DNA of 64,000 bases, taken from an uncultured archaeon (GTDB lineage Archaea > Asgardarchaeota > Thorarchaeia > Thorarchaeales > Thorarchaeaceae). The stretch is from positions 8,832 to 72,831 of the forward strand of contig CAZPWM010000001.1 in NCBI GenBank assembly GCA_964590575.1, in the 5' to 3' direction. Made by a program: the position numbers and the translations under genes. The notes under the pieces were generated by a model. That model saw only the letters and a list, made by a program, of their open reading frames with translations. It was not told the origin of the DNA and made no database searches. Below are positions 7,529 through 52,897 of this stretch, piece by piece (positions within the stretch are counted from its first letter, which is position 1; every line of letters begins with the position of its first letter).

Positions 7529-7530
7529 TA

Positions 7531-8394: not shown

Positions 8395-8418
8395 CATAGT
8401 TGAGAATGTGTCTAGCAA

Positions 8419-18482: not shown

Positions 18483-19196
18483 GTGCATCCCCGTCTACTA
18501 CAACTTGTAGGAATCATTTTAGTAATTGTTACACTTGCGATGACCTTCATTGTCTACCAAAGCACAATGATGATAGAAGGTCAAGAGTTCTTCACGATGA
18601 TTGCTTCAGGAATGATTGCTTGGGCTATTGTTGCATTACCTGAATTAGTACTTGGCTTATGGCTGATTGCCAAAGGAACGCGTGAGGCTCGTATTGGAGA
18701 TGTATCAGGAGACCTCATTCCCCTTGTACAGAAAGAAGGTCGTATCAGTGTGGATGATGCTGCCAGACAACTTGCTGTTGAACCACAGGTTGTCGCTGAC
18801 GCAGCAGAGAAACTAGCTAAGCGTCGACTGCCACTTGTATACCTAGATCGACGAGCTCATGAGATTGTGAGTCCGAAAGCTGTATCGTTGAAGGAGAGTC
18901 TGTTACATCTTCTCTATGCACAGCGACGAATGACTTTTGACCAAATACAAAAAGTAACCGAGTCAACTGATGAGCAGATAGTGGATGCCTTGAAGGAGTT
19001 GTCAAAACAGGGCAAGTTCAGAGGAGTAATTGATGAGAACTCGAGGGTGGTATACACTCAGGAAGCAGTATCTCAACTTCCTAAAGCAGTGACTGTTTGT
19101 CCTAACTGTGACGGAAAGTTGGAAGCTCCAATTCTACCAGGTGAGGAAGAATTCTGTCCATATTGTGGACATGCTATCGTGAACAGACTGAAGTGA
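18483..19196 (+). CDS. Membrane-anchored hypothetical protein with C-terminal zinc ribbon
   Basis: 2 N-terminal TM helices; C-terminal CPNCDG...CPYCGH. Confidence 0.5.
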   Translation: MHPRLLQLVGIILVIVTLAMTFIVYQSTMMIEGQEFFTMIASGMIAWAIVALPELVLGLWLIAKGTREARIGDVSGDLIPLVQKEGRISVDDAARQLAVEPQVVADAAEKLAKRRLPLVYLDRRAHEIVSPKAVSLKESLLHLLYAQRRMTFDQIQKVTESTDEQIVDALKELSKQGKFRGVIDENSRVVYTQEAVSQLPKAVTVCPNCDGKLEAPILPGEEEFCPYCGHAIVNRLK

Positions 19197-21856: not shown

Positions 21857-23290
21857 TCACGTTATTCCATGTTGACTACCACGAATCCGTCGCCGAAGGT
21901 TGAGACGAACTTCATCGACCCTCTCTTTCACTCTACTCCCCTTTGGCCAGAACTCCTTGATCTCATCAAAGCCATGGACATCCCAATAAAGCGGACATGC
22001 TCCATAACAGTAGCTAAACTTGTCACATTTCTTACAACCTTCTGGAGCAAAGTCCTTCGCTCTCCAGAATTTACTAGCTCTATTATACCAAACCTGCTCA
22101 AACCCTTCGTTGAGTAGATTTCCAACAGGTTCACTGAAGCTTGAGCATGGAAGGAGACCTCCTTCTGCGTCAACTGAAAGTAACCCATCACAACAGGCAC
22201 AGCTCTTAGCTCCGAGTCCGTGCGCTATCGGGTTGAAGATACAGACTGGTGTGGGTGCGTACCACACGAACTGAATGCACTTTTTATTTGCACGTCTCTT
22301 AACGCGTTTCACAATGTCCTTGATTTCAGAATACTTGACTTGGAGTTCCTCTCTGAGTTTGGCTGCTGTCCCAGTGTATATGACCATGTTCATACTAAAG
22401 TAAGTGAGCTCCAAAACATCAGCATGGAAATCAACTAGTTCCTCAAGCTTGTCTAGATTGGGTCTGCAGATGGTTGTGTTGCAGTGTGTGTAGATGTCGG
22501 TTTCCCGTAGATTCTTGATACCCTGCACAGTCTTGTCGAAGGCACCTGGGCTTCCAACAATGTAATCGTGCGTTTCAGCATCTGGACCTTCAATAGAAAC
22601 CTGTGCACTGTTCAGTCCCGCATCAACTAGCTTCTGTACGAATTCCTTGTCGTGGCAACGAATTCCATTTGTGATTAGATTGACACGAAGGCCCCTCTTT
22701 CTTGCATGGGCTATTAGTTCAAACAAATCCTCCCGGAGGGTTGGTTCTCCACCAGTGAAAGACAGACTTGGAACATGTGCATCATCAACGATGATGTCAA
22801 TGACCCGTTTCACTTCCTCAGTCGTCATCTCACCGGATTCTCGATACGGTGAGTAGGCATAACAGAACCGACACTTGTTGTTGCATCGATAGGTGAGAGC
22901 AATTTCACTAAGGACTGGATACTTGATCTCTCCTTCTCCAAATGGCACTATCCTCGCAGTCTTGTAGCTATAGATGTTCTGATTGCCTATGGCCATGTTT
23001 CTGAGATCATCAATAAAAGCGGCGAGGTCATTGGTAACAACCTGTTCTGCTCCTCCTGCATCCACAAAGTGCTTAATGATATCCTCTAGTGACTCATTGT
23101 CAAGAAGCATCTTTAGCATCCTCATACCAGTTTCATTCAGATGCATTATCTTGTTCGGACGTAGAATGAGTAGGTTGTCCTGAGGTCTTGCAAAGAAGAA
23201 GTCTCTAACCTCATCAATGAAAGCAGGAACCCATTGCAGGTCTTCCAATGTGTAATCATAATAGGGTATTGAAGGCGGTGAGGTCATCAC
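21857..23290 (-). CDS. Radical SAM/SPASM-domain peptide/protein-modifying enzyme with N-terminal PqqD-like RRE domain
   Basis: N-terminal ~90 aa PqqD-like pattern (LILRPNKIMHLNETGMRMLKML...EDIIKHF), CNNKCRFCY (CxxxCxxC), C-terminal SPASM with CKKCDKFSYCYGAC (CxxCx5Cx3C) and additional Cys. Confidence 0.85.
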   Translation of the reverse strand: MMTSPPSIPYYDYTLEDLQWVPAFIDEVRDFFFARPQDNLLILRPNKIMHLNETGMRMLKMLLDNESLEDIIKHFVDAGGAEQVVTNDLAAFIDDLRNMAIGNQNIYSYKTARIVPFGEGEIKYPVLSEIALTYRCNNKCRFCYAYSPYRESGEMTTEEVKRVIDIIVDDAHVPSLSFTGGEPTLREDLFELIAHARKRGLRVNLITNGIRCHDKEFVQKLVDAGLNSAQVSIEGPDAETHDYIVGSPGAFDKTVQGIKNLRETDIYTHCNTTICRPNLDKLEELVDFHADVLELTYFSMNMVIYTGTAAKLREELQVKYSEIKDIVKRVKRRANKKCIQFVWYAPTPVCIFNPIAHGLGAKSCACCDGLLSVDAEGGLLPCSSFSEPVGNLLNEGFEQVWYNRASKFWRAKDFAPEGCKKCDKFSYCYGACPLYWDVHGFDEIKEFWPKGSRVKERVDEVRLNLRRRIRGSQHGIT

Positions 23291-33659: not shown

Positions 33660-36271
33660 TTGCAGAAGAAAGTGGTAAGTACACTTTTGACCCTTTGTCT
33701 AATTCTCTCAAGTGTTCCTGTTCTTCTCTATGTCATGCCGATAGATGAAGTACAGCCAACAAAGATTGAACCAGTGACATTGGACTTTAACAGATTGACT
33801 GAACTTTATGGAGAGCAGATTCCAGTAGTTGTTCGTTTTAATCAAGGTCTCTCGTCTGGATTACAAGATATCATCTCATCTATGCAATTGGAATTTAGCC
33901 TCGGAAGTGCAAGTAAAAGTCACATCGGTTCGTACTATCTACTGAATGGCAATCCGGATAGTCTTCAGGCTTTGATTGATATGGGTGTTGTTGCGAAGAT
34001 TGCTCCGCAGACACATACACAATTTCTGGAAACTCCTAGAGACCTCTCAATTCCAGAAATCAATGCTGATGATGTCTGGTCGACGCTTGATGATTTGAGT
34101 AGAAACATCACAGGTCGAGATATTCTCATTGCGGATCTCGATTCAGGAGTAGATTGGCGACATCCTGACCTCTGGTTTGCTGATGGCGGCCAATACACTT
34201 GGTTTGACCATGCTGCAAACGGTCAGCTGGATAATGGAACTGATGGTATAGATCTCAACCCTGATGGAATCATTATGCCTGATGAGGCTCTGTATGTTCT
34301 TGATTTAGATCGGAATGGCATTTTCAATGTTCGATTTGAATGGGCATGGCTTGACAATGTCACTCAAAATGGATCTCCAGACATCGGTGAACCGTTCTTT
34401 GTTGTGAATGATACTTCGGGTGATGGTTTCCTTGACCTTGGAGAACCCTTGGTCATGTTGGGAACTCCTAAAACCAAGTACATCTTTGAAATGGATGGTA
34501 ATCCCTCACCAAGTCTACAGTTATGGGAGCGTGGAGTGAACCTTACATCAAGCACTCACAAAGACGACAGTCCTTATGGTGGAGGTCATGGAACCGCTGT
34601 CGCTGGAATACTATTGGGTGGACAACTTGGTTTTCGAGACTATGTTGGTGTGGCCCCTGATGCAGAGTTAATGCTGATTCGTGTTATAGGCGATCAGTTC
34701 ACGTGGATCTCAATTGAAGCAGGGCTTGCAATCGCAAACAATACGGGGGCTGATGTTATTCTTACAGAAATCGGGTCATGGACCTATCAATATCTCGATG
34801 GTAGTTCATTGGCTGAGGAAATAATTGACGATTTAGTTGCTGATGGCATTCCAGTAATCTCTCCAAGTGGGAATCTTGGAGGAAAGGACAAACACGCAAT
34901 GATCAACACAGTCCGTTTGCTCCCCATCAGATTGATTTCTTAGTTCCTACAGTAGATGGCCTTTATGTCTTTGAAGACATCACGGAGGTCTACATAACAG
35001 TCCTAACGGTTGATCCCACTGATTTCGTGGTGAGTAATTTTAGTTTGACAATTAATGGAACCACAACCTACCTTAATCCCGGAGTGGGTGAGGGTATATG
35101 GTTCCTGCAATCTAACATTATCCCTGGGGTCAATGTGCAGTCTTACATCTCTACTTCTACAAGAGGTACGAAGATGCTTGCCATCCAACTCTATGGAGCT
35201 CTTCCCACCACTCCTCCCGTCGTGCCCTACCAACTTGGCATCTCAACACCTGATGCCGCAACGATTCATGCGTATATCTCTGATGACCAGAGTGGATGGA
35301 CTGGTGGATGTGTATGGACAACCGACATGGCGGATAGTTATCATATTACATGGCCATCGACAGCAGACAGTGCAATAAGTGTCGCAAGCTATCACACAAG
35401 GAGTCTCTATGGGACAATTGGAGATCGTGCTAGCTTCTCCTCTATTGGTCCAAGGATTGATGGTTTTCCCAAACAGACTGTTGCAGCTCCTGGAGGTTAC
35501 GACATTATCTCAGACTATGCAAATGGTTCTGTTTGGGCCTCTTGGTTTAATGGTGGTGGTGCATTACCTTTTCAGCCGCAGTTTGGAACTTATCGGTTAT
35601 TTAGTGGAACAAGTGCATCAGGACCGCATGTTGCAGGAGCAGCTGCACTGCTGCTTCAAGCCAATGTTACTATTGGGGGTCAAATGAAAGCAATTTTTGA
35701 GTCCACTGCAGTAAGTGATGTGTTCACCGGGGTTGTCCCAAACGACATGTGGGGTAGTGGTAAACTGGATGTGGAGGCTGCATTAGCCTTCATCACTCCT
35801 GGTCCTGATGTTGATGGTCCAGTGATTGGGAACCATAATCGAAGCCCCTTCACGCCTAATTCTACTGAATCAGTACTGGTGAATGTTACAGTGTCAGACG
35901 CTTCTGGGGTCGACACAGTGATTCTTTCATATTACAATGGCTCAACCTGGTTCAATGTCACAATGACTTGGACTGGGTTATATTATGAAGGCACAATTCC
36001 TGCATTCCCGAATGGAACTACTATACTTTATCGTTTCTACGCAAACGACACACTTGATAACTGGTCCATGTCTGGGACATTTAGCTACACTGTTACAGAT
36101 CCTGGAACCACCACAACCACGACCACCAGTACAACCTCGACAACGGGAAGCCCGACTACGACCTCCCCTCCCCCCGAAGAACCGGATTACCTTCGATTGG
36201 CGGTGATACTAAGTGTGGTGCTTGCGTTGATAATTCTGGCAGTTGTATGTAATCGAAGGAGGTCACGATGA
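33660..36271 (+). pseudogene. Subtilisin-like (S8) surface protease, frameshifted: Asp/His/Asn in ORF 33660..34943, Ser in ORF 35027..36271
   Basis: DLDSGVD and HGTAVAG in first ORF; SGTSASGPHVAGAAALL in second; frame +2 reads through 34862..35030 joining them; Thr-rich stalk and C-terminal TM plus RRRSR. Confidence 0.6.
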
Positions 36272-36392: not shown

Positions 36393-36731
36393 ATGAAGCA
36401 ACTTGGCGGATTTACTCTCGACTTAGGACATAAGAAACACATGCCTGTGGAAGTTCTAGTCGATAATGGCAATACACTCATTCTGATAGACTGTAACTGT
36501 TGCGAGGAAAATCTTTCGCGAAGGCTTCCTGGAGGTGCTCTCATACCTATTGCGACAGCCTTGAAAACCTTCTTTGCGGCTCGGGGGATGAGAAATATCG
36601 ATGTCAATGTGAGCGGAGTAATGATGCGCCGTACCTACAAGGGTATCATGGATGAGTCGGACCTTCCTGAGATGACAAAGGAATTGGAACAGGCTGTTAG
36701 TAATTTCACTCGCAAACGAAAGAAGAGATAG
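36393..36731 (+). CDS. Hypothetical protein (112 aa)
   Basis: ORF only. Confidence 0.3.
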   Translation: MKQLGGFTLDLGHKKHMPVEVLVDNGNTLILIDCNCCEENLSRRLPGGALIPIATALKTFFAARGMRNIDVNVSGVMMRRTYKGIMDESDLPEMTKELEQAVSNFTRKRKKR

Positions 36732-36765: not shown

Positions 36766-37860
36766 CTATTGATTTTCAGCTTGGAACTCTTTGAGATATT
36801 CAGCAAGTTTCATACAACCCTCAAGAGACATTGCATTGTAGATTGAAGCTCTCATTCCTCCAACTGAGCGATGTCCTTTGAGTCCCACCAAATCTCTTGC
36901 AGTTCCTCCAGCAACACACTTCTGTTCCAGCTCTGGCGAAGCCATGGTGAATGTCACGTTCATGAGCGAACGCGAATCCTCCCTTGCATGACCCTTGTAG
37001 AACCCATCGGAGGAGTCAATAACATCATAGAGGACTTTTGCCTTCTCTATATTTCTCTTCTCCATCTCCTTCACTCCACCTATTTCTTTCAGGTACTCAA
37101 GCGAGAGCTTACAGATATAGATTGGGAAAACTGGTGGTGTATTGTACATAGAGTCGTTGTCGGAATGGGTTTTCCACTTTTGCATTGAAGGTGCACGATC
37201 TGGAGCTCGATCAAGAAGATCCTCTCTTACGATGACTAAAGTGACCCCTGCTGGTCCAAGATTCTTTTGGGCTCCAGCATAGATTACGCCATAGTCCTTA
37301 ACATTGATAGGTCGATCCATGAGGTTCGAAGACATGTCACAGACAAGAGGAACGTCCTTAGGAACGGAGGGTAGGTATGACCACTCGGTTCCATAGAGTG
37401 TATTGTTACTTGTGAAATGTGCGAATGCGTTCTCCTCATTGAATTTAACATTCTTTGGAATGTATGAAAAATTCTCATCTTCGGAAGAGGCAATTACTTT
37501 GACTTCCCCAAAGAGTTTAGCTTCTTTGATCGCTTTCGTGGACCATCCGCCTGTATTAGCATATTCCATTGGTTTTCCAGGGATATGAAGATTAAGGGGT
37601 ACCATATAGAATTGAGTCGAAGCTCCACCTCCCAGCCACAGAACCTTATAGTCCGTCGGAACTCCCATCAACTCTCTCACAAGATCAGTAGCATCATTCA
37701 TGGCTTTCTCCCACTCTTTTGACCGATGTGAAATCTCCATCACTGACATGCCAGTTCCCGCGAAATTCAAGAATTCCTCCTTGGCTTTCTCAAGGACTGA
37801 TAGTTGTAATGTAGCTGGTCCAGCGTAGTAGTTCCATACTCTCTTTATCATTATCTTCAC
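36766..37860 (-). CDS. serC: Phosphoserine aminotransferase (class V aminotransferase)
   Basis: NYYAGPATL, ISHRSKEW, 364 aa SerC-type. Confidence 0.9.
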   Translation of the reverse strand: MKIMIKRVWNYYAGPATLQLSVLEKAKEEFLNFAGTGMSVMEISHRSKEWEKAMNDATDLVRELMGVPTDYKVLWLGGGASTQFYMVPLNLHIPGKPMEYANTGGWSTKAIKEAKLFGEVKVIASSEDENFSYIPKNVKFNEENAFAHFTSNNTLYGTEWSYLPSVPKDVPLVCDMSSNLMDRPINVKDYGVIYAGAQKNLGPAGVTLVIVREDLLDRAPDRAPSMQKWKTHSDNDSMYNTPPVFPIYICKLSLEYLKEIGGVKEMEKRNIEKAKVLYDVIDSSDGFYKGHAREDSRSLMNVTFTMASPELEQKCVAGGTARDLVGLKGHRSVGGMRASIYNAMSLEGCMKLAEYLKEFQAENQ

Positions 37861-39201
37861 TTACTCCAGTTTGTTTATTGTGAATCCAGTCCAGACTTTA
37901 GGCTGGAAGAACGTACTCTTTTGAGGCATGCATTCGAAATTTTTCGAAACAGCTTCAACCTCATTTATTCGTGTCGGGTTCATAAAGAAAACGGCCTGAC
38001 CATCATTCTGGACAGACTTTATCGATTCCTTTACAGCATCACCTATGCCTTTAATGTAGACAACATACCCTCCTCCCTTCATTGTACCCTGCTCCAGCTT
38101 CTTTTTATCAATTCCCAGCATTTTGTCAAGAACGAGGGTATGAAGTATAGCCACATCGAGACCTCGAAGTTCTATAGACTTGTTTGGCAAGAGTTCATCC
38201 ATCACTGAAACCTCCTTCAATGTAAGAGCATAGAACTTTCCATTATCCATGTAGAGTCCAAAGGAATGTTTTCCTTTCCGGAACTTATTCTCCATTAGCT
38301 CAAACATGGACTCTGATGATTCAAATATATCAACATCGAAGTATTTGTTGATGTCTTCAAGGAGTTTATCCTTGGAGAAGTCTTCCAAGTTTTGTACAAG
38401 TCTATGAGTAGGCAGGACTACAAGTCCGGGATTTGAGATATTAACAAATGTGAGCATGCGGTATCTTGCGGTTTCTAGCTCTGGGTGTTCTTTAGACAAT
38501 GCAAGGGCTGTTTTATATCTATGATGACCATCAGCTATTATAACGAACTTGTCATCCATTAGTCGGACTATCTCTTTCAGGTCATCTTCATTGTCAATTC
38601 TCCAGAGTCTATGACGGATACCATCGTAGTCAACAACATCGCCAACTGGATTGTCCTTCATATGCTTCTCAAGGATTGCATCCACCTGTCGTTCATGGTC
38701 CGGGTAAATTACAAAAATCTGTCCAAAATTAGCCATGCAACTTCTACATAGACTAAGTCGGTCTTCAATATCTTTTGGGAGGGTTTCTTCGTGTTGAAGA
38801 ACTCCATCAAAAATACTAACGCTCGGAGCTCTTGTTGCGAATTCTTCGAGTTCAATCAACCCAATGAATCCAAACCTAAATAGTGGTTTTCCCTTAATCT
38901 CAAAGTCCTGTCCATAGACATAGAATGACTCTTTCTCATCAGGTGTGAGAATACCCTCATTGATCCATTTATTGAAGTGGTTTCTCGCTCTGGTATACTG
39001 ATTTGATGAAGGTGTGTCGTTTTCTTCAGATTTGTTCTTTATGATCCATGCCATATTATAATCAGAAAGTGATTGAAGTTCGTCTATCTTGTCGCCCTTA
39101 ATGATATCATAAGGCGGAGTCACCAATCGAGACAACTCGCCCGCCTTGGCCTCGTTGTATCTATAAGCTTTGAATGGTTTTACACGTACCATCGTTAGCA
39201 T
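37861..39201 (-). CDS. DUF1015-family protein
   Basis: IIADGHHRYKTA signature (ADGHHR); stop codon abuts serC start. Confidence 0.8.
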   Translation of the reverse strand: MLTMVRVKPFKAYRYNEAKAGELSRLVTPPYDIIKGDKIDELQSLSDYNMAWIIKNKSEENDTPSSNQYTRARNHFNKWINEGILTPDEKESFYVYGQDFEIKGKPLFRFGFIGLIELEEFATRAPSVSIFDGVLQHEETLPKDIEDRLSLCRSCMANFGQIFVIYPDHERQVDAILEKHMKDNPVGDVVDYDGIRHRLWRIDNEDDLKEIVRLMDDKFVIIADGHHRYKTALALSKEHPELETARYRMLTFVNISNPGLVVLPTHRLVQNLEDFSKDKLLEDINKYFDVDIFESSESMFELMENKFRKGKHSFGLYMDNGKFYALTLKEVSVMDELLPNKSIELRGLDVAILHTLVLDKMLGIDKKKLEQGTMKGGGYVVYIKGIGDAVKESIKSVQNDGQAVFFMNPTRINEVEAVSKNFECMPQKSTFFQPKVWTGFTINKLE

Positions 39202-39372
39202 CTCCGGTTTCTAACTATAGATTCTGCTGAGCCGGCTCTTAGACTCTTTGTCATAAGTCTTTCTTTCCGAATGAAACTCTCTCACGTTTGAGAAAATTCC
39301 CAAACGTCAAACTTAAATGACTAAGGGTGACGGACACGCGAACCTATAATATCGACGGGGAGACATAAATAA

Positions 39373-39642
39373 ATGGAATTTTGTGAGAAATGCGGAGCCC
39401 TCATGTTTCCTAAAAAAGAGGAAGGAAAAAAGACAATCATATTGAAGTGTCGAGAATGCGGGCATGAAAAATCAGTTCGTTCTCCTCCTGATTACAAAGT
39501 AGAACATCGAATAAAACACACTCCTCGTGAGAAGATTGTTATCGTTGAAGAGGATTCAAAACATATGTCGGAGATGACTGAGGATGAACGTCGTGAAAGA
39601 CGTAAAGAAATACTGGAATACTACGAGTCGGAAGATGAATGA
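39373..39642 (+). CDS. Zinc-ribbon protein with charged C-terminal tail (Elf1-like / TFS-RPB9 N-ribbon-like)
   Basis: CEKCG...(19 aa)...[10 protein letters not shown]; acidic/basic tail; 89 aa. Confidence 0.55.
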
Positions 39643-41902: not shown

Positions 41903-43681
41903 ATGAATGAAATTAAGGATGTCGCAAGACGCAGTATTTACTTATCTTTATCAAGAACGTACGACCTATACAATTCAGAGAGGAAATCCTACTTGCCTAG
42001 AAGTGTGAGAGAAGTCCCAAAAGAGATTGCTGCATTTGGAGAGCGCCAGTTCAAGGATTCTGGTGCAGCCGCAGTTGAAGTTCTTCGAGTAAAAGCAGCT
42101 GTGATGAGAAAGCACTTTCGTCAATTGAAAGGGATCACATTTCTCGTGGCTGTTGTAGCACGTGATCGGGTTCGAATCTATTTCTTCAACGCTGCTGGAG
42201 TCATGCTTGTGGGTGAGAATGTAGAGGTACCAGTATACCAAAAAGTTCGTGCAAGTTCCAAGCTCATCGCAAAGTATGAGAAACCAAGAGAGCTCACTCC
42301 TGAGGAGCAACGCATTGAAGCAACACAGGAGCTTAGAGAATCGTTAGTCAAAGCTATTCGTCGTGTGACTCGTTTTCTAAATGTAGCTCCGCCAACATTC
42401 CCAGATATTTTCGTCACTCGAACAAGCTCTGAAGAATCCAGCCAAAGTTTTGGGCTTCAGTTAACAGATGATAGGGAATACCTTTTCGAAGAATCCGCAC
42501 TAAAGACAAAATGGGTTGATGGACTCATTACTCGGACAGCGTTTCTTGTGCATCTTGAATCTGCACACTCAAAGACTCATATTGCTTCCTTAGTTGGCAA
42601 TGGGATTGCACTGGCTCTATTGAAGGATCCTGCAAAAAAGGGATTCCGTGAATTCTGGTTGAAAATCAGCAAAGATACAGAATGGTCTCCTCTAGTGAAT
42701 CACATGATCAAGCATTCGGATTGCTATGCGGGTAATGGGTTTGTTAGACTCTATTCACTTCTTCAACAAATATCTTCTTCTAGCTCAGTTGATGATTGGA
42801 TCCTCCCATTCAGAGTAATTCACGATAGTGCGAGGGTCTCAATAGGAACTGAAGAATACCATACAATTCAGGGGTTCTGCAAGACTCTATCAAACCCTCG
42901 AAAATTGAATTCTCGAAAACACAGTCTTGAATCTATTCACATGGCTCCTCGTGTTATTTGCGATCCCACTCCTTTGAACACTCAAATCTTCATCTCCCAT
43001 GGGTCCCCCTCAGATGAAGACTGGGCAACTGTGTCATTCATTGATGGCTCAGAAGTTAAGACACTCAGAATAGGCCCAGCAGATGAATCACGTGTAACAA
43101 CAATAGAATATTGGATGAATCTTGAGGATGTCTACCCTACATCTGGGGGATTGATCTCTCATGGCAAGAATGTTCTCCAGCGAGCTCTAGCAACTCTTGG
43201 GATCGAAACCACTCCTTCTGGGACATTTGAGGCAGCCATTGAATTCTCAGACTCCGTTTTAACCGCTAATGAGAAAGCTGTCCTTGAACGTTTGATTCTT
43301 GGAAAGTCTGATGTATTGTCGAATACATTGGTTGGCTCACCCCAGATAATTGACAAGCTACTTGCTAAAGGGAAAATCATGTTCCTGCCAAGCTTCAACC
43401 ATATTGGAGTGGATTCGGATTATCTATTGAGAGGGCCAACTGATTTAGTGAGGCAAATTGTAAGACAAAATTGCGTTGAGGCTACTCTCTTCAATAACAC
43501 TGCAGAGTCATTTGCTGTGGTTTCTGCCCCTCCAACTTGGAGAGATGGACTTCTTGAATCCACTGTCAAGGAAGGTGTGTCCATCTGGTCCATCATATCG
43601 ACCACCTCGAATAGAAATATTCTGCGTTGTGAGGATTCGTTTCCAAAACAAGTTGTGACCTGGTCTGATGGTGTCACTTGA
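41903..43681 (+). CDS. Large hypothetical protein (592 aa)
   Basis: Long ORF, no motif recognised. Confidence 0.5.
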   Translation: MNEIKDVARRSIYLSLSRTYDLYNSERKSYLPRSVREVPKEIAAFGERQFKDSGAAAVEVLRVKAAVMRKHFRQLKGITFLVAVVARDRVRIYFFNAAGVMLVGENVEVPVYQKVRASSKLIAKYEKPRELTPEEQRIEATQELRESLVKAIRRVTRFLNVAPPTFPDIFVTRTSSEESSQSFGLQLTDDREYLFEESALKTKWVDGLITRTAFLVHLESAHSKTHIASLVGNGIALALLKDPAKKGFREFWLKISKDTEWSPLVNHMIKHSDCYAGNGFVRLYSLLQQISSSSSVDDWILPFRVIHDSARVSIGTEEYHTIQGFCKTLSNPRKLNSRKHSLESIHMAPRVICDPTPLNTQIFISHGSPSDEDWATVSFIDGSEVKTLRIGPADESRVTTIEYWMNLEDVYPTSGGLISHGKNVLQRALATLGIETTPSGTFEAAIEFSDSVLTANEKAVLERLILGKSDVLSNTLVGSPQIIDKLLAKGKIMFLPSFNHIGVDSDYLLRGPTDLVRQIVRQNCVEATLFNNTAESFAVVSAPPTWRDGLLESTVKEGVSIWSIISTTSNRNILRCEDSFPKQVVTWSDGVT

Positions 43682-45365
43682 TTTTCTTTATTATAGTGCC
43701 AATTGCTCGAGTGTTGGCCTCTCTCAGAACAATCTTGTCTCCTACATTCAAAGCCTCAGGCGAGATCATGAACTCAAGTCGCACTCGAGCAAAATCACCA
43801 ACACTTAGATAATCTGCATCATAGATTTTCTTGAGGACCACCGTCTGTTGTATTGTGTGTGCTTGTAGGACTGGTGCATAGCCTACGGAGATTTTCGTTG
43901 GATGCCGTGTGACAATGATGTTCGCTTCGAAAGTTCTACAACTTCCGGATTCTATGTCCGGGTCTGTAATCATCTGACCTCTTCGAACAAGATGTTTGTC
44001 TACGTCTTTGATATCAAAGCCAAAGAGATCCCCTGCCTTCACCATTCCAATTCGTTTCTTGAACATCTCAATACTGAACAGTCGCCCCTCTTGGAACTGG
44101 TTACCACCATCTGGTCCTATTCTTAGTGCCTGACCCTTCTTGAACATGCCTGACTTGACTGTCCCCGTGACAACTACATTTGCTCCCTTTATTCCTCGAT
44201 ACACTTTGTCAACATATGCTCGTGCAGGATCACTCAGACCGATATGATTAGAGTTTACAGGGAGTGATTTGAGAAGGTTTGTCAAAAGTTCTAATGATTT
44301 CGACTCCAGAGCTGAGATTAGAAATATGGGCACTATCACTTCGTTACTGAGTTCTCTTACAATCGGAGGTATTTCATCACTTGTTCTAACCGTGACTGGT
44401 ATTCGTCCTACTTCTTTGAGACTATTTCTAACTACATTCACTACAAGTTCTAGATCTTGAGGACTAGTTTTATCTGTCTTTGAAATCATAACGATAAAAG
44501 GCGCGCCTTGATTGGCCATCAATATCATATGCTCTCGAGTTATCTCATCAAGTCTTGGAACACCATAGTTCAGCTCTTCTTGCCTGATTAGATATGCTTC
44601 TTCCGGACCCGGAATTAGAACAAGTCCATATTGTGCATCAGCTCCAAGGATTGATCTTATCATTGTCTTGCTGTATTCTTTGTGACCTGGTGCATCGAAG
44701 AATGTGATTATCTTCACGGATTGATCTAGAACTCTAGCTGAGTCTTCCTTGTTCAATGGATTCTCAGGATATACTGTGTTGCCTTCTTCATCAAATCCCA
44801 TGAATGCAAGGTGAATATCTGCAGTTTGTCCCCTTGTAATTTCCTGCGGATGTGTGAGGAGGAATGATCTCGCGCTTCCACTACCATTGTCAGGGCGTCC
44901 CGTAACTAGAGCCCCAATCAAACTAGATTTTCCTGAGTTGACTCTACCCGCAACATTGATTGAACAAGTTTCTTTTATTTCCGGTATTGCAAGTCGTTTC
45001 AGAAGATAAGACCCGACCATCCCCTGCAGTGTTTCAATCTGCTCCTCTTCAACAATCTCAACTGATGCTTCTTCGCACAGCTCAGCAAGAATCCTCTCCG
45101 ACGTTTTCAAAGCATTCTCCGATATTCCGTGTACTTGCCACTCCTTCCCTCCGATATCCTCAATACCAATGAGAAAAAGTCCCTCAAATGGACTCTCACA
45201 TGTCATATAGCGAATCCGCGTGACTAACTTCTGTTTCCTCTCAGTCTTGAGGTCTGCTCGAGTGAGTTTCCTCTTGAACTCTGTACTTCGATTCTCTCCT
45301 TTCATCAGGATTTTGAGAATCTCATCAGGCGTTGTCATTTGGTGTACTCCATGTCTTCTCTTCAT
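43674..45365 (-). CDS. EF-Tu-like translational GTPase of GTPBP1 family
   Basis: AGRVNSGKSS (G1), DAPGH (G3), SKTD (G4), C-terminal beta-barrel domains II/III, ~130-aa N-terminal extension. Confidence 0.75.
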   Translation of the reverse strand: MKRRHGVHQMTTPDEILKILMKGENRSTEFKRKLTRADLKTERKQKLVTRIRYMTCESPFEGLFLIGIEDIGGKEWQVHGISENALKTSERILAELCEEASVEIVEEEQIETLQGMVGSYLLKRLAIPEIKETCSINVAGRVNSGKSSLIGALVTGRPDNGSGSARSFLLTHPQEITRGQTADIHLAFMGFDEEGNTVYPENPLNKEDSARVLDQSVKIITFFDAPGHKEYSKTMIRSILGADAQYGLVLIPGPEEAYLIRQEELNYGVPRLDEITREHMILMANQGAPFIVMISKTDKTSPQDLELVVNVVRNSLKEVGRIPVTVRTSDEIPPIVRELSNEVIVPIFLISALESKSLELLTNLLKSLPVNSNHIGLSDPARAYVDKVYRGIKGANVVVTGTVKSGMFKKGQALRIGPDGGNQFQEGRLFSIEMFKKRIGMVKAGDLFGFDIKDVDKHLVRRGQMITDPDIESGSCRTFEANIIVTRHPTKISVGYAPVLQAHTIQQTVVLKKIYDADYLSVGDFARVRLEFMISPEALNVGDKIVLREANTRAIGTIIKKIK

Positions 45366-45541: not shown

Positions 45542-48500
45542 ATGTACAATAGATACTTCATTCTGGCAATCTTACTCGTACCCCTTTTTCTAACTCCCAC
45601 TTCTGTGGCTGCACGAGTGGAATTGAATTCCACATTCGGTTCAGACAGACCGCTGATTGAATCCCGCCTTAGAATGGAGGTTCAATCTTCACCAAATCCT
45701 ACAAGCGCTCTTCTTGAATTCAAGAGTCCTTTGTCATCTACTGAGATCCTTAGAGCTGAAAGTTTAGGAGTCACTTTCGTGAAGCGTGGATCCTCGATTG
45801 TCAACGTTGGCCGGATTTATTCTGTAGAGATAAACAATATCGTTTCTTTGGAAGCCCTATCTGAAATAGGTCTAATCAGAGCCACTTCTGGAAAAAAACA
45901 ATACATACCCGCTCTCTCATCCTCAGTGCCTGCGATTCGAGCTGATGATGTTTGGACGAATCTGAACAAGAACGGTGGGGCAGTCAATGGTTCCGGCGTA
46001 ACGGTTGCAGTTCTAGATACTGGCGCTCTTTGGACACATCCTAGCTTTTGGCGTGCATCACCCGGCGAGTACAAGACCATTAACAATGGGTCTGACTACT
46101 ATGTAGATCTGGATAATGACACGGTGCCAGATTCTACCGAAATTATTCGTTTTGTGGGTGGAGGCGGACCTGACTTTTCCTACGCATTTAACTACATGTA
46201 CATTAATGCAGATGGGATCGCAGGGTTTAGCTATGCATCTGGAGACCGCTGGATTGGTGGAATTGATGCAAATGATGATACGGTCATAACTTTGGGAGTT
46301 GAGAATGTAGTTCTCTTAGACGTATCAAAAGTCGCAGTTTTCTACGACCAAGAACACTCCAACGTGTATGTGAGAGATGTCAATCTCACTCAAGCGGTGT
46401 CCATTGGTGATTATGATGGTCATGGAACACATGTAGCTTCCACTATTGCCGGTGGTCAAGTTGGAATGACATCCTATGTCGGTGTTGCCCCTGGCGCAGA
46501 TTTGATAATTATCAGAAGTGTTCTCCAATCTGCTGACATCTTGGATGGTATAGCCTTTGCAATTGAGAATGATGCGGACATTATCAACATGTCTTTCTCT
46601 TCATATCTGGGATTTTTAGATGGGACTGATTTGGAAGACCTTGCGGTATCAGAAGCGTTCCTGAGGTATGGAGTATTGACAACTGCAGCTGCTGGAAATC
46701 TTGGTAATAAAAACAAACACGCTCGATTCTCTGCGGCACAAGGGTCTTCGGGTTCTGCTTTGATGAGAGTAGATGATGTTGTTATATCAAGAGCACCATT
46801 TCTGAGCTTGTTGTGGCACTCGTCAGACAATGATGAGCATGTTATACTAACACCACCCTCCGGTAATCCAATAGACCTTGGAGCCTTCTCATCTATTGCA
46901 CAGCAATCCTGGGCACTTGAAGATGAAAATCTTGCAGCCTATATTTTTGCGGATGTCAGTATACGAGGGCTCAACAATGTGATAATCCAAGTTTCCACAA
47001 ATGACCATATGTGGGCGAATGGTGTTTGGAATGTAACAGTCACTAATGGTTCGGGTGACCTCATTTGGATAGACGGATTCGCATGGGATGGACGGTGGGA
47101 AACAACCCACTTAACTTTCCAGACCGCTCTTGATTCAGGAAGAAGTATCAGTTCCCCTGCTACTGCTGATCTTGCAGTGGCAGTTACTGCCTACAGTGAA
47201 GTAAGTTCAGGAATTATGAGCGAATCTAGTAAGGGTCCCAGGGTTGATGGCTCTCCAAAACCAACTGTGGCTGCCCCTGGTGATAATATAGCTGCAGCTC
47301 TGGCTAGTCTTACTAGCCTATGGACTTCAAAGGATGGGACCAGTATGGCCTCGCCGCACGTTGCGGGAGTGCTAGCACTTATTCGCCAAGCCTCAGGCAA
47401 GAACTCTGCATGGTTGGACTACTCTGCCTTGGTCAATGGTGCTGGAGGTCAGGCTTCACATTATGAAACAGCCTCGCCCTCATGGGGCCATGGTCTCACT
47501 GATGCTCTGTGGTCAGTTGTTCAAGTTTTAGATTCTCCAGGTATGGATGGTTCTACAATGTCCGATTGGTACGGTGTGAGTGAACTATTCGGAGATGCAA
47601 CAAATCTCTCAGTCAATGGAGGACATGATATCATTTCTGCCAAGTCATTCTTGGACAATGATACTATTGGAATAGCAATAACCATGAGGGCCGCACCTGA
47701 TTTACAGGGTACGGATGTTCTCAGCATTGAGTGGGATAATGATTCAAATGTGGGTACTGGGAGGAACGGAGCTGACATCGTTGTCAATATTACTGGAGGG
47801 TCTGCAGATGTCTATGAATGGAATGGTAGTTCCTATGTAGCTTCATCTCTAGTTTCACAATGGTGGACTGATTCGACAGCAGTGATCCTTCGGCTTGATG
47901 GTATTACTCCTGGCGTTCGTGGAATTATATCTATGAGTACACATAACTCTACGATGAGCAATATCGACCAAGCTGGTCCTGGGACGCTCACTGATATGTT
48001 GCCCCCTGTCATGGAAGACCTCTGGATGCAGTTTAATGATGGTTCAATGATTATTCACCTAGCCACGAGAGATCGCGACACTTCACAAGAACTTCGAAAC
48101 ATTGCGTGGAGTGTTGTCAACGGGCCTCTTGCAACTCTCAACTCATCATCACGAGTAGGAGAAAGCGATTACATAATCACTGTTCCTGAGAATCTGATTA
48201 CTTCTGATTATCTCAATAGCCTTTCATTGAATATCACATCAGAGAGCTTTACTCTTATCTTACCACTCGTTTTGCTTTCAACCCAAATCGGTCCACAACT
48301 AGTGTTTTCAATCGCTACGCTCAACCAAGATGTTGTTCGAGTTGGATTCCTGTTGAATGATTTAATTGCTGGCGAATTGGTGTTGGAGGGTTTTACTCTC
48401 GCTTCCTTGGTCTACGTAGCATTCCATTCTGAATCTGGGTCTTGGCTCAATTTCACTCTTTCAAGTAGTACTGGTCATTACGACTTTGAGATATCCCCCT

Positions 48501-48691
48501 CATACTTCCAACTAGGGTCACATGAGGTATACGCAATCGCTATAGGGCAGGTAGTACCTGGAACATCTCTGAATTTCGCCACTCTAACAGTGGTACAGGA
48601 TTACACTGTGCTAGCTGTAGGGGCTGCAATCCTTATCGTGGGTTGTGGTATAATTGTGATTATGCGAAGACGTAGAGGTGACATAGGCTGA
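45542..48691 (+). CDS. Subtilisin-like (S8) serine protease, secreted/surface-anchored (1049 aa)
   Basis: Signal peptide; VAVLDTGA (Asp), HGTHVASTIAGG (His), AAGNLGN (Asn), GTSMASPHVAGVLALI (Ser); C-terminal TM plus RRRRG. Confidence 0.85.
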   Translation: MYNRYFILAILLVPLFLTPTSVAARVELNSTFGSDRPLIESRLRMEVQSSPNPTSALLEFKSPLSSTEILRAESLGVTFVKRGSSIVNVGRIYSVEINNIVSLEALSEIGLIRATSGKKQYIPALSSSVPAIRADDVWTNLNKNGGAVNGSGVTVAVLDTGALWTHPSFWRASPGEYKTINNGSDYYVDLDNDTVPDSTEIIRFVGGGGPDFSYAFNYMYINADGIAGFSYASGDRWIGGIDANDDTVITLGVENVVLLDVSKVAVFYDQEHSNVYVRDVNLTQAVSIGDYDGHGTHVASTIAGGQVGMTSYVGVAPGADLIIIRSVLQSADILDGIAFAIENDADIINMSFSSYLGFLDGTDLEDLAVSEAFLRYGVLTTAAAGNLGNKNKHARFSAAQGSSGSALMRVDDVVISRAPFLSLLWHSSDNDEHVILTPPSGNPIDLGAFSSIAQQSWALEDENLAAYIFADVSIRGLNNVIIQVSTNDHMWANGVWNVTVTNGSGDLIWIDGFAWDGRWETTHLTFQTALDSGRSISSPATADLAVAVTAYSEVSSGIMSESSKGPRVDGSPKPTVAAPGDNIAAALASLTSLWTSKDGTSMASPHVAGVLALIRQASGKNSAWLDYSALVNGAGGQASHYETASPSWGHGLTDALWSVVQVLDSPGMDGSTMSDWYGVSELFGDATNLSVNGGHDIISAKSFLDNDTIGIAITMRAAPDLQGTDVLSIEWDNDSNVGTGRNGADIVVNITGGSADVYEWNGSSYVASSLVSQWWTDSTAVILRLDGITPGVRGIISMSTHNSTMSNIDQAGPGTLTDMLPPVMEDLWMQFNDGSMIIHLATRDRDTSQELRNIAWSVVNGPLATLNSSSRVGESDYIITVPENLITSDYLNSLSLNITSESFTLILPLVLLSTQIGPQLVFSIATLNQDVVRVGFLLNDLIAGELVLEGFTLASLVYVAFHSESGSWLNFTLSSSTGHYDFEISPSYFQLGSHEVYAIAIGQVVPGTSLNFATLTVVQDYTVLAVGAAILIVGCGIIVIMRRRRGDIG

Positions 48692-48747: not shown

Positions 48748-49968
48748 ATGTTCAATACGCAGTCTGAAATTCAAATTATCACTGAGGAAACATTAGAATC
48801 TCACAGAAAACCAGGCGCCTCGATGGCACTTGAGTTTCCTGATACTTCAGATCTCCGGATAGACGATTGGTCGTTTGATGCTCTCTCAAAGAAACGAATC
48901 GCCACCATCACAGGAACTCAGGTGACGGGAGGAGATTCCACCTCCAAAGAAATCTATATCAAAGGATCCCATGGCGAGAAGACTTTGAGCTATGACAGAC
49001 TCATCTTAGCTACTGGAGGCATTCCTGCTTTGCCGAATATACCCGGTACGGATTTAGCAGGTGTCTTCACAATTCAGACGATGGCTGATACAAGTGAGAT
49101 TGGAAACCAGTTGTCTGGGATGAAATCGATTATAGTTGTTGGCGCTGGTTTCAGCGGTCTCGAAACTGCTGAGAGGCTTCTTTCAATTGGAAAAGATGTT
49201 CACCTCCTTATACGATCCCGACTTATGCGAAAACAATTGGAGGAACCAATGAGCCTGGAACTTCAGTCAAGAATTCCAGACAGACTGAATGTACACGTTG
49301 GTAAATCCCCTTCATCCGTAATTGGGGATAAAAAAGTGCAAGGAATAACTGTTGGTTCAGAAACAATTCCTGTCGATGCGATTCTTTTCATGACCGGTGT
49401 CCGACCTAATACCGAGCTTGCTAAGAAACTTGGTGTCAAGATTGGCCCCTTGGGAGGAATAGTAGTTGATGAAGCGATGAAGACATCTGTGAATGATATC
49501 TTCGCAGTCGGCGACTGCGTTGAGATGAAAGATTCGCTTACTGGAAAGCCACTTCTTCTTCCAATTGGTAGTGTAGCCGCTCGTGCAGGTCGACAAGCAG
49601 GAGTTACCGCAGCAGGTGGCTCCAAGATATATGATGATACACTACGTCGCCTACAGTATGACCATATCTTCAATACTGATATTGTTGTAGTCGGTCATTC
49701 AACCACAACTGCTACCGAGATGGGCTTGAAAACTGATGTTCAATATTTTGAGGATAGCACAGAATTTGCGAAAGTAGCTTTAGTCACAACTGATGATGGA
49801 CGCCTTGTTGGAGGTCAGGTGATATCTTCACGCATGGGTGCTCGGCTTGGTTATGAAATACTTGAGCGAGTTGAGTCTGGAGCCACCCTAAGAGAAAAAC
49901 CCCTTCTCAAACCACGTCACGAAAGATTGCGTGAGTATCTAGAATCTACTTATGGTCCTATTCGATAG
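48748..49968 (+). CDS. FAD-dependent pyridine nucleotide-disulfide oxidoreductase (N-terminus probably begins upstream at a non-canonical start)
   Basis: Second Rossmann IIVVGAGFSGLE, C-terminal FAVGDC; first Rossmann motif KIIIIGYGPGGAAAAVAAR encoded in-frame at 48691..48747. Confidence 0.8.
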   Translation: MFNTQSEIQIITEETLESHRKPGASMALEFPDTSDLRIDDWSFDALSKKRIATITGTQVTGGDSTSKEIYIKGSHGEKTLSYDRLILATGGIPALPNIPGTDLAGVFTIQTMADTSEIGNQLSGMKSIIVVGAGFSGLETAERLLSIGKDVHLLIRSRLMRKQLEEPMSLELQSRIPDRLNVHVGKSPSSVIGDKKVQGITVGSETIPVDAILFMTGVRPNTELAKKLGVKIGPLGGIVVDEAMKTSVNDIFAVGDCVEMKDSLTGKPLLLPIGSVAARAGRQAGVTAAGGSKIYDDTLRRLQYDHIFNTDIVVVGHSTTTATEMGLKTDVQYFEDSTEFAKVALVTTDDGRLVGGQVISSRMGARLGYEILERVESGATLREKPLLKPRHERLREYLESTYGPIR

Positions 49969-52897
49969 ATGGCGGTGGGAGTTCCCACTCATCATCATCT
50001 GCTTTCTGTGTGTTGAGGTATCGTCGAGGTGGTTTTTGTCGACCTTGAATCCTGGTTAATATGACATATCCGAGGCCAATTCCAACTACTCCCAAGAGTG
50101 AAAAGATAACTGTCAATACCAAGGCATCATCCGCCGCATAAACTGGAACTAGTATGGTTTTCGTAAAGATCCTCACATTCCCTGCTAAGTCGGTAGCTAC
50201 AACTTGGATAGAAAAGAATCCTCCACTATTGAAAATAAAGGAAGTTGAAAATCTATAACCGAATTCCTCGAGGATAGCACCAGTCAGGTTCACTCCAGCT
50301 GGTCCAATAATACTCATTGAAACACTCTCAAGATCGTCGTCGAAAATGTATGCTGACACATTTGCTTCTTGACCAAACTCACCGATGTTAAGTTTAACAT
50401 CAAATATCCTTGGAGCATCTGGTATGATAATAGTAGCTAGATTTCTCAAGAGTCTAAGATTATCTGCACCTACACTGATTGCATCAAATAGAATATCATC
50501 ATACAAAGTCGATCCGTCTGATATTGCGAAGACCTGTCCACGACCATATTCAGCTGTAGCAACAATGGCATGAGTCCTACCAGTATCTTCCCAGAGCAGA
50601 CCTCTCGCATTAGATATACTTGAGTTCACATGAAGTGTACTGCCTTGGACGACATAGAGGTTGTTCACACCATCCATTAATGGATCATTCTCTACGTAGC
50701 CGCTGTAGTTGGCACCGTATACCAATCCATATCCTTCAAATCCAAATCCTATTGCCCTCCTTTCGCACTGGATGCCAAACGGTCCGAGAATCGCATTGTA
50801 ATCATCGAAAGCAAATGATGCCTCTCCAGTAACCTGATTAAATGATTCTGAAAAAACAAGCAGTGTCCCTCCGTTCTCAACAAACGCATGAATCGCTGTT
50901 ATTTCACTCACAGAGTATGACGTTTCTGTGTCCATGATTGTGAACACATCTGCACCTGAAATTGTGCTCAAATCAATATAGCTTCTAGAGAAGTCTTCAG
51001 AATTGCCAAACTCTGACACTACCATTCCTTTCTCTCTAAGATATTCCGTAAAGTATCCATAGTATGAGGGGTCATCAATATCCCCGTCTGGGCCACTGGA
51101 ATGATGCTCCATGTCCACCATCATTCTCCCGCCAAAAATTGTGACGGTGTATCTGATTTCAATTGATGCAACAACATCACTTCCTTGTGTCAAATTGAGA
51201 TGACCTGTATATACTCCAGCAGCAGAAAGAGGTACGCCTTCAGGTATTACGAGTTCAACCTCGAAGTATGAATATCCTGTTGTTACTATAAGCTCTTCAA
51301 CATCTGTTTCGATAAATTGACTTGCATTCCCTGAGAGTGTGATGTTCACAAGACCTATTGATTGTGTCGAGATGACAGCAACATTTTGAGGGGGGCGATT
51401 ATCGCCAACAATAAGGACCTGTGAGCTTCCTGGTAGGGTTGGAAGGCTCCGTGGTGTCATCAGAGTTATGTCTCGTGCTGAGCTATCCAGAAGCTGAGAT
51501 GCTTTAGATACATTTGCCAAACCCCACCCCTGACTCATCGGGTCATCTCCTAGATCTTGTGCTGTGCTCATCAGAGCTACCTTTGCCTCCACTGGTGTAA
51601 GAGCCGAATGCCTCTGTGTTAGTAGAGCAATCAATCCCGCAATCATCGGTGTTGAAGCAGAGGTTCCGGACCAACGAGTATAACTGGTGCCAAACTGACT
51701 ACTGTTATAAGCTGGATATTCAAGAGCGTTGACATTGTTTCCTCTTCCTGAAACCACCTGATTTCCTGGTGCTACAACATCTGGTTTTGCAGTGTATCCT
51801 AGTGGATCTGAAGATGTTCGCAACACAGGGCCAACACTACTAAATGCTACAACACCAGTGTCACCAAATGAAGACCCAACTGTGACTGCTTCCTCTGCTA
51901 CCCCTGGAGAATTGATTGTAAATGCTGCTGGTCCTGAATTCCCAGCAGCAACAACAACAGAAATCCCGGCTGCAACTGCATTTTTAATCTCACTTATCGA
52001 TGGTTCAACAATGTACAAGCTGTCGACCCATTCTCCTCCCAGACTGATGCTTATGACATCCACATTTTGTTCGATTGCAAACTCAATACCTTGGGCTATT
52101 ACATCATCCTCACCAGATCCTGAAGCATCAAGCACTTTAATCGCTAATAGATTTGCACCAGGAGCAATTCCCATAAGACTACCATTGCTTGCAGTTCCAT
52201 CGCCTACCGCATTCCATGCGCATGCTGTTCCATGTCCATTGTCATCATAAGCAACAATACCGTTTCCAGGATTCATATCATCTTGACCATCAATCAAGTC
52301 CTTGAATCCAATCAAACGATTTTGAAGGTCCGGATGGCCACTCCAAACGCCACTGTCCAACACTGCGATTGTTGTACCTGTGCCATTGTAACCCTCAGCC
52401 CACATCAGGTCTGCACTAAGAATTGAATCGAAGTGAACATATCCGTTCCCGTTTTCAGCTAGAACGTATTTCTCTTGAGGTATAACTTCGTCAAGTAGCT
52501 GCCGTTCCTGATTCATCTTTATCGACTCCATGTTGGATACTTGAGAAAGAGCTTGGACTTCATCAACTCTGAGTGATAACGAAACCATAGGAATCAAGTG
52601 AAATGCATATCTTATTTGGACACTGTCAATACCTGCTAAGCTTATTCTTTCTACCATCTCATCAGTGGATGTTCCTTCTGGGAATTTCACTATGACTGAG
52701 ATGCGACTGTCAGATTCCATCGTAGATAATGCTACAGCAATGTCGGAATCAACGAGAGCATTCTTGTGTTCTGTTTCTTCTGTTACAGCTCCTGAATAAA
52801 TGGCGATAGGTGTGAATAGGAGAGTCAGAAGTACGACAGCCACAAAACGTCGATAGTATAATTTGTGGATAGCTGGCATGTTCAAATGTCCTTCCAA
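49958..52897 (-). CDS. Subtilisin-like (S8) serine protease, surface-anchored (979 aa; real start possibly Met at 52879)
   Basis: Signal peptide, TTIAVLDSGV, HGTACAW, AAGNSGP, WSGTSASTPMIAGLIALL; C-terminal TM then charged tail. Confidence 0.85.
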   Translation of the reverse strand: MEGHLNMPAIHKLYYRRFVAVVLLTLLFTPIAIYSGAVTEETEHKNALVDSDIAVALSTMESDSRISVIVKFPEGTSTDEMVERISLAGIDSVQIRYAFHLIPMVSLSLRVDEVQALSQVSNMESIKMNQERQLLDEVIPQEKYVLAENGNGYVHFDSILSADLMWAEGYNGTGTTIAVLDSGVWSGHPDLQNRLIGFKDLIDGQDDMNPGNGIVAYDDNGHGTACAWNAVGDGTASNGSLMGIAPGANLLAIKVLDASGSGEDDVIAQGIEFAIEQNVDVISISLGGEWVDSLYIVEPSISEIKNAVAAGISVVVAAGNSGPAAFTINSPGVAEEAVTVGSSFGDTGVVAFSSVGPVLRTSSDPLGYTAKPDVVAPGNQVVSGRGNNVNALEYPAYNSSQFGTSYTRWSGTSASTPMIAGLIALLTQRHSALTPVEAKVALMSTAQDLGDDPMSQGWGLANVSKASQLLDSSARDITLMTPRSLPTLPGSSQVLIVGDNRPPQNVAVISTQSIGLVNITLSGNASQFIETDVEELIVTTGYSYFEVELVIPEGVPLSAAGVYTGHLNLTQGSDVVASIEIRYTVTIFGGRMMVDMEHHSSGPDGDIDDPSYYGYFTEYLREKGMVVSEFGNSEDFSRSYIDLSTISGADVFTIMDTETSYSVSEITAIHAFVENGGTLLVFSESFNQVTGEASFAFDDYNAILGPFGIQCERRAIGFGFEGYGLVYGANYSGYVENDPLMDGVNNLYVVQGSTLHVNSSISNARGLLWEDTGRTHAIVATAEYGRGQVFAISDGSTLYDDILFDAISVGADNLRLLRNLATIIIPDAPRIFDVKLNIGEFGQEANVSAYIFDDDLESVSMSIIGPAGVNLTGAILEEFGYRFSTSFIFNSGGFFSIQVVATDLAGNVRIFTKTILVPVYAADDALVLTVIFSLLGVVGIGLGYVILTRIQGRQKPPRRYLNTQKADDDEWELPPPSIE

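Follow-up and report, generated by a model that had tools for sequence, protein, structure and literature searches.

The closest described counterpart of the locus studied here is an operon of C. difficile that encodes an AGXT-like aminotransferase, a 'hydroxypyruvate reductase' acting as phosphoglycerate dehydrogenase (PGDH) and the DUF1015 protein CDIF630erm_01132. Operon extracts make serine from 3-phosphoglycerate, and CDIF630erm_01132 was first proposed as the missing phosphoserine phosphatase by Hofmann et al. 2018 (PMC6110889). Here we describe the family membership, operon structure, fold and conservation across phyla, as a gene pair, of an archaeal member of this family. It is encoded in a 64,000-nucleotide stretch (the window) of contig CAZPWM010000001.1 from an uncultured Thorarchaeota-like archaeon, by an open reading frame (ORF) directly upstream of the phosphoserine aminotransferase gene serC, with both genes on the minus strand. 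The pair probably constitutes a two-gene serBK-serC operon, whose DUF1015 protein would be a nucleotide-dependent phosphotransferase interconverting O-phospho-L-serine and L-serine.

Genetic evidence for the family comes from bacteria and is assembled in the GapMind 2026 preprint (bioRxiv 10.1101/2024.10.14.618325). DUF1015 homologues often adjoin serA and serC, and among 50 genomes in which a close homologue is linked to serA, 47 have no confidently recognised SerB. CBO1128 of C. botulinum rescues an E. coli serB::kan mutant. B. thetaiotaomicron requires BT1151 to grow with L-serine as its nitrogen source, and BT1151 also has an unexplained D-serine phenotype. The predicted structure resembles the serine kinase SbnI, and the family was named SerBK; for the C. 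difficile protein, AlphaFold 3 gave a confident placement of ATP (bioRxiv 10.1101/2024.10.14.618325). The archaeon T. kodakarensis has SerK, an ADP-dependent kinase that acts specifically on free serine; the proposed fates of this serine are 3-phosphoglycerate, via the aminotransferase and SerA, and cysteine (PMC5120207). From bacterial homologues it is therefore known that DUF1015 proteins can replace SerB in vivo and support the use of serine, and an earlier sequence-only reading of the window, which took the family to be without an experimentally established function, is out of date on this point. A search of the literature on the serine-pathway gene content of Thorarchaeota and other Asgard archaea returned nothing useful.

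The window protein is a full-length DUF1015 member. Its sole Pfam match, PF06245, spans profile positions 1-324 of 325 (E 4.8e-84; 282.5 bits against a cutoff of 25.8). An alignment of 118 DUF1015 sequences that includes it contains 31 invariant columns, with ADGHHRY, PYD, HE-x-T and a C-terminal P-x-K-x-T...P-K among them. Near-identical and 69-89% identical proteins carry Candidatus Thorarchaeota names in the source databases. No NCBIfam model matched the protein, a single-sequence search of the PDB was empty at E <= 1, and neither NCBIfam nor phmmer with E. coli SerB revealed similarity to HAD-type SerB. The adjoining ORF (36766..37860) scores 486 bits against TIGR01364 (cutoff 443.6) and 489.8 against PRK05355 (cutoff 253); judged by these profiles, its predicted product is a bona fide phosphoserine aminotransferase, SerC.

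Gene context was surveyed by scanning GTDB species genomes with a 46-sequence DUF1015 profile; 80 loci were fetched, and three archaeal relatives and one bacterial relative were looked up in addition. The DUF1015-serC pair is retained in the Thorarchaeota relatives L004, L006, L007 and L008, at 87, 72, 69 and 66% identity. These loci are not independent of the window, because the entire neighbourhood is syntenic with it. In a neighbour-joining tree, which is approximate only, the Thorarchaeota loci form a clade with three Thermoplasmata-like archaeal loci (L090-L092) and seven loci of Planctomycetota. A same-strand class-V aminotransferase gene lies nearby in all 14 fetched clade loci against 2 of 73 outside the clade (Fisher p = 2e-14, or 3e-11 without the four syntenic Thorarchaeota loci). 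Its distance is at most about 110 nt in 12 of the 14 and 0.8 and 2.5 kb in the remaining two. The adjacency of DUF1015 and aminotransferase exceeds chance. The sequence-only reading had called for such a survey and named lack of the linkage in relatives, together with a canonical serB and serA elsewhere in the genome, as the outcome that would refute its proposal; within the clade, the linkage is conserved.

The archaeal loci of this clade form an informative series. In L092, which is flanked by archaeal ribosomal protein genes, a DUF1015 protein 51% identical to that of Thorarchaeota is followed by SerC (61% identical to the window SerC; TIGR01364 516 bits) and a 292-aa dehydrogenase. In L090 and L091, the DUF1015 protein (about 45% identical to that of Thorarchaeota) is followed by an AGXT-like class-V aminotransferase and an orthologous dehydrogenase, 67-69% identical to that of L092. 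The AGXT-like enzymes share 23-25% identity with the canonical SerC of L092. Two non-orthologous aminotransferases in one slot beside DUF1015 are the strongest comparative argument for a functional pairing. The best match of the dehydrogenase in all three loci is the PGDH model TIGR01327, at 322-341 bits against 213-228 for GyaR; it stays below the TIGR01327 cutoff because the C-terminal part of this 525-position model is missing.

Bacterial loci extend the pattern. All seven Planctomycetota loci have DUF1015 followed by an AGXT-like enzyme. The Thermotogae locus L020 encodes aminotransferase, PGDH and DUF1015, which is the C. difficile layout, and in the Anaerolineales locus L076 a full-length PGDH (624 bits) comes after DUF1015. 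At the conserved core stand DUF1015 and the aminotransferase, which correspond to the two steps between serine and 3-phosphohydroxypyruvate. A phmmer search with E. coli SerB found no HAD-type SerB in any fetched locus. No protein named Thorarchaeota was present among the best 120 homologue matches (at least 62% identity) of the short, operon-type PGDH.

These comparisons bear on whether the adjacency has anything to do with serine. DUF1015 might act on another substrate, or regulate, and stand beside serC through inherited synteny, as the many non-clade DUF1015 loci without ser neighbours and the wholly syntenic, non-independent Thorarchaeota loci would allow. Such an account is very improbable, because the aminotransferase has been displaced by a non-orthologous type (23-25% identity) within the same slot and the pairing has survived the swap. 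The pairing also recurs across phyla with unrelated flanks and often includes a PGDH-like gene, and the sole structural relatives of the protein act on free serine. Outside the serC-linked clade, cysK lies 1.8-3.9 kb from DUF1015 in five loci of Acidobacteriota and relatives (L061, L069, L071, L077 and L081; in L077, TIGR01139 gives 372 bits, above its cutoff of 351), which hints again, though less strongly, that the family is connected with the metabolism of serine, O-phosphoserine and cysteine.

Structure prediction, also suggested by the sequence-only reading, gave a confident AlphaFold2 model from the 118 sequences (predicted local distance difference test score 94.1, predicted template modelling score 0.92). 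The top nine Foldseek matches in the PDB are 1vk1, T. kodakarensis SerK (5x0j, 5x0e, 5x0k, 5x0g and 5x0b) and SbnI (6nr6, 5uje and 5ujd), at E 1.6e-7 to 6.7e-5, probability 1.0 and target-normalised TM-scores of 0.49-0.55; lower-ranked matches are noise. In the model, the two-domain ParB/sulfiredoxin-type free-serine-kinase fold of SerK and SbnI is wholly embedded in the DUF1015 protein, which adds about 200 residues. Both the ParB/sulfiredoxin-like N-domain and the SerK-type C-domain are present. At the sequence level, a 46-protein DUF1015 profile reaches 1vk1 and SerK weakly (E 0.004-0.04). The match runs via IADGHHRY, aligned with IVDGHHRW, and a C-terminal stretch ending in PQKST, aligned with SPKTT; both motifs are invariant in the DUF1015 family. 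With this weak profile similarity and DUF1015 as its one Pfam family, the protein does not belong to the SerK/SbnI sequence family. The model thus suggests a protein that would work like SerK and SbnI yet stands outside their sequence family. The sequence-only reading had also raised a 3-phosphoglycerate-handling step for DUF1015; this finds no support, as the fold relatives act on serine and a separate gene fills the PGDH role in relatives.

The fold also informs the original idea of Hofmann et al. that DUF1015 is a true hydrolytic phosphoserine phosphatase, transferring phosphate to water and using the kinase-like fold merely as a phosphate-binding scaffold. Hydrolysis would explain the serB::kan rescue and the absence of SerB from 47 of 50 genomes with no thermodynamic problem, and ParB-fold proteins can hydrolyse nucleotides (PMC12704722). 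We nevertheless consider it decidedly unlikely. The full two-domain SerK/SbnI architecture is kept, including the invariant DGHHR motif common to both nucleotide-dependent kinases; AlphaFold 3 places ATP confidently in the C. difficile protein; and a phosphatase does not explain why BT1151 is needed for L-serine use.

If the nucleotide-dependent phosphotransferase reading is correct, the DUF1015 protein would transfer a phosphoryl group between O-phosphoserine and an adenine nucleotide, at the step for which SerB, a HAD phosphatase, is normally responsible. SerC, made from the same mRNA, would interconvert O-phosphoserine and 3-phosphohydroxypyruvate. Together they would link free serine to 3-phosphohydroxypyruvate and then, via a PGDH encoded elsewhere, to 3-phosphoglycerate. 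Homology, gene context and fold all suggest that the Thorarchaeota protein acts as its bacterial homologues do.

The remainder of the pathway was sought across the window. A Pfam census of its ORFs of at least 120 aa found no HAD phosphatase or SerB and no SerA, as the sequence-only reading had stated for the phosphatase. Searches of the window by phmmer with E. coli SerB and SerA returned one match, the dehydrogenase at 60587..61570 (-). That reading had described this gene, the only D-2-hydroxyacid dehydrogenase it saw, as GyaR-like rather than SerA-like, and the scores agree: NCBIfam glyoxylate reductase PRK13243 gives 458.5 against a cutoff of 455, and the best PDB matches give 372 bits for GyaR against 224 for a PGDH. 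As a protein that passes the glyoxylate reductase equivalog cutoff and is encoded 22 kb away, it was ruled out as a cryptic SerA.

The direction in which the pair operates is a separate question. We lean slightly to biosynthesis, with DUF1015 replacing SerB, because CBO1128 rescues a serB mutant. Serine assimilation in a peptide-degrading lineage is nearly as likely, given the kinase fold, the BT1151 phenotype, the T. kodakarensis precedent and the many large subtilases in the window. In its strict form, the assimilation view would have the Thorarchaeota pair serve catabolism and supply only: a free serine kinase would make O-phosphoserine from peptide-derived serine, and SerC would convert this onward to 3-phosphohydroxypyruvate and thence 3-phosphoglycerate, or it would supply cysteine synthesis as suggested for T. 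kodakarensis SerK, with serine itself made otherwise, for example by GlyA. This strict form is a genuine possibility. It accords with the kinase fold, with serine assimilation via SerK, aminotransferase and SerA in T. kodakarensis (PMC5120207), with the L-serine phenotype of BT1151 and with the cysK genes found 1.8-3.9 kb from DUF1015 in the five Acidobacteriota loci. The lack of an adjacent serA in Thorarchaeota and a window rich in large secreted-type subtilases, fitting a peptide-degrading lifestyle, point the same way. Against it, the lifestyle argument is circumstantial, and the sole direct functional test of the family, rescue of the serB mutant, ran in the biosynthetic direction.

Several points weigh against a nucleotide-dependent SerB replacement in this archaeon. 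A serine kinase running backward toward serine is thermodynamically unfavourable (K ~4e-4), and the GapMind authors left the mechanism open (bioRxiv 10.1101/2024.10.14.618325). A search with an N-terminal sub-profile gave no SerK match and did not locate a DUF1015 counterpart of the SerK catalytic residue E30; the invariant D29 and E135 are candidates for this role. Functional data on DUF1015 come from bacterial members alone, and the Thorarchaeota protein is 33-42% identical to the fetched bacterial DUF1015 proteins. There is no serA within the 64-kb window, which is all of the genome examined for SerA and SerB. Finally, about 70 of the 73 loci outside the clade (in Clostridia, Acidobacteriota, Desulfobacterota and others) have no ser gene within 5 kb. 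Linkage to ser genes is therefore a property of some DUF1015 subfamilies and not of all, and the family may be functionally non-uniform.

A further idea would reconcile the two directions. The clade enzyme might be a reversible, energy-conserving SerB replacement that passes the phosphoryl group to ADP or AMP and not to water, and forms with its obligatory aminotransferase a bidirectional module between serine and 3-phosphohydroxypyruvate. We regard this as speculative and on balance doubtful. If true, an energy-limited, peptide-fermenting Asgard archaeon could run the module to 3-phosphoglycerate when serine is plentiful and to serine when it is scarce, and the 200 residues that SerK lacks might either alter the equilibrium or, through channelling, tie the reaction to SerC.

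The features of the locus are collected in Table 1. At the junction of the two genes, the DUF1015 stop codon TAA occupies 37863..37861, and the adjoining base 37860 opens an in-frame GTG that the sequence-only reading took as the serC start. The SerC N-terminus (M-x-K/H-R-V-x-N-F/Y..GPATLP) is kept in five relatives; because the window counterpart begins at ATG 37851 in the junction alignment, the serC start is placed there. The same alignment shows that (A/G)GTGA, a spacer of 4-5 nt and then ATG are common to L004, L006, L007, L008 and L092. GGUGA is the Shine-Dalgarno core that pairs with the 3' end of archaeal 16S rRNA. The AGTGA spanning GTG 37860 is thus probably the serC ribosome-binding site, overlapping the last base of the upstream stop codon, and GTG 37860, which lies within this motif 4-5 nt 5' of the conserved ATG, was ruled out as the start. 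The stop codon followed at once by an in-frame GTG therefore stands, and the start does not: the true gap between the genes is most likely 9 nt. They are still tightly coupled, as had been proposed.

Table 1. Features of the DUF1015-serC locus, with position in the window, strand and details
DUF1015 / SerBK-type gene	37861..39192	-	443 aa from ATG 39192; ORF open to ATG 39201 = 446 aa
serC, phosphoserine aminotransferase	36766..37851	-	361 aa from ATG 37851; ORF open to GTG 37860 = 364 aa
GGAG Shine-Dalgarno-like motif, DUF1015 gene	39202..39205	-	direct sequence reading; putative function
AGTGA Shine-Dalgarno-like motif, serC	37857..37861	-	contains GTG 37860; (A/G)GTGA conserved in relatives
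ADGHHR codons (A220-R225 in 443-aa numbering)	38518..38535	-	invariant in 118 diverse DUF1015 proteins
Hairpin, 9-bp stem, 6-nt loop	36734..36757	-	RNA fold -14.7 kcal/mol, z = -3.14 vs shuffles

For the DUF1015 gene, ATG 39192 is probably a better start than ATG 39201: GGAG lies 9 nt upstream of the former, and the shorter length is also that of a database entry with 100% identity (P0001) and of most close relatives. GGAG abuts ATG 39201 and therefore cannot serve it. Since the upstream neighbour, a Zn-ribbon gene (39373..39642, +), is divergent and the downstream 112-aa ORF (36393..36731, +) convergent, the operon consists of just the two genes. The hairpin occupies the 34-nt gap between serC and the convergent ORF and is followed by a pyrimidine-rich tract, making it a candidate for the transcript end. 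The 112-aa ORF is 85% identical to its L004 counterpart, is present in L006 and L007, has no Pfam match and holds, on the opposite strand, the slot of the PGDH-like gene in the closest archaeal relatives outside Thorarchaeota. Because two ORFs on the antisense strand (36871..37188 and 37921..38208) lie across well-supported genes, they were regarded as spurious. A sigma-70 promoter and terminator scan of the window, a bacterial model not applicable to archaea, gave counts at chance level, and Rfam and tRNA scans of the window found nothing.

The wider window carries several archaeal genes, including those for the RFC small subunit, XPB, RIO kinases and a TFS/RPB9-type Zn ribbon. Two adjoining ORFs of 427 and 414 aa (33660..36271, +) correspond to the first and second halves of the Peptidase_S8 profile. 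An 883-aa homologue from L004, encoded by a single gene, aligns in frame 3 to 34925 and in frame 2 from 34898, so the two ORFs are one frameshifted subtilase gene, either a pseudogene or an assembly error. Three further large subtilases lie within 15 kb (45542..48691, +, 1049 aa; 49958..52897, -, 979 aa; 55018..59883, +, 1621 aa). This unusual concentration of S8 proteases fits a peptide-degrading lifestyle. A pyridoxal-phosphate enzyme with Ala_racemase_N and D-ser_dehydrat domains, of the D-serine dehydratase / D-threonine aldolase type, is encoded 17 kb from the serBK-serC operon (20090..21241, -).

Other loci in the window are less readily assigned. An eEF1A-like GTPase paralogue (41903..43681, +; 563 aa) is convergent with a gene for a 592-aa protein without a Pfam match (43674..45365, -). 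The two overlap by 8 nt, and the gene pair is also kept in L004, L006 and L007. Five successive ORFs of 287-349 aa (4178..9456), with zero Pfam matches, adjoin the gene of a Helicase_C_3-domain protein (9453..11177), with the XPB helicase farther on (13749..15455). The 237-aa product of 18483..19196 (+) combines a C-terminal zinc ribbon with a weak match to the DDRGK domain, which at 21 bits falls short of the 27.8-bit cutoff; it might be related to the eukaryotic UFMylation adaptor, as described for Asgard archaea. The protein encoded at 21857..23290 (-) is of the radical SAM / SPASM type and carries a PqqD-like domain at its N-terminus, a combination typical of peptide-modifying maturases.

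The proposal that DUF1015 is a non-orthologous SerB of the phosphorylated serine pathway was right in substance and is supported by the published family genetics, the conserved linkage and the kinase fold, but had already been made, and partly tested, for bacteria. New in this analysis are the archaeal operon series, the two-aminotransferase slot and the link of the family to SerK as well as to SbnI. The slot evidence provides independent comparative support for SerBK, and the series extends the family from bacteria to archaea. A gene whose automated label is 'DUF1015 domain-containing protein' thereby becomes annotatable, in Thorarchaeota and related archaea, either as the final step in making serine or as the first in assimilating it. 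The compact archaeal two-gene system offers a test case for how a kinase-fold enzyme could replace a phosphatase.

Compared with known systems, the window protein shares with HAD-superfamily SerB the proposed pathway step, with no sequence relationship and a different fold and chemistry. SbnI is an ATP-dependent free serine kinase of staphyloferrin B biosynthesis; it is much shorter than the DUF1015 protein, shares 10-16% identity with it, and belongs to a siderophore cluster in which it feeds SbnA and not SerC. SerK (TK0378; PDB 5x0b/5x0e; homologue 1vk1) has 242 aa against 443 and 13-17% identity. It is annotated as ParB, whereas the Thorarchaeota protein matches only DUF1015 in Pfam, and it is known as a kinase and not as a replacement for SerB. 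The DGHHR-type motif is common to SerK, SbnI and the window protein, whose IADGHHRY aligns with the IVDGHHRW of both 1vk1 and 5x0e.

The closest likeness is to SerBK (CDIF630erm_01132, CBO1128 and BT1151). The Thorarchaeota protein, a putative SerBK by family, context and fold, is archaeal and has no adjacent serA, and its partner is a canonical SerC, in contrast to the AGXT-like partner in C. difficile. It belongs to the same full-length Pfam family, carries all family-invariant residues and has the same structural resemblance to free serine kinases. SerBK genes are recognised by their position beside serC and/or serA, and in Thorarchaeota serC follows 9 nt downstream. The DUF1015 gene thus forms an operon with a phosphoserine-type aminotransferase gene, to which the nearest archaeal relatives add a PGDH-like dehydrogenase. 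In L090 and L091, the resulting arrangement of AGXT-like aminotransferase, short dehydrogenase and DUF1015 equals that of the C. difficile operon.

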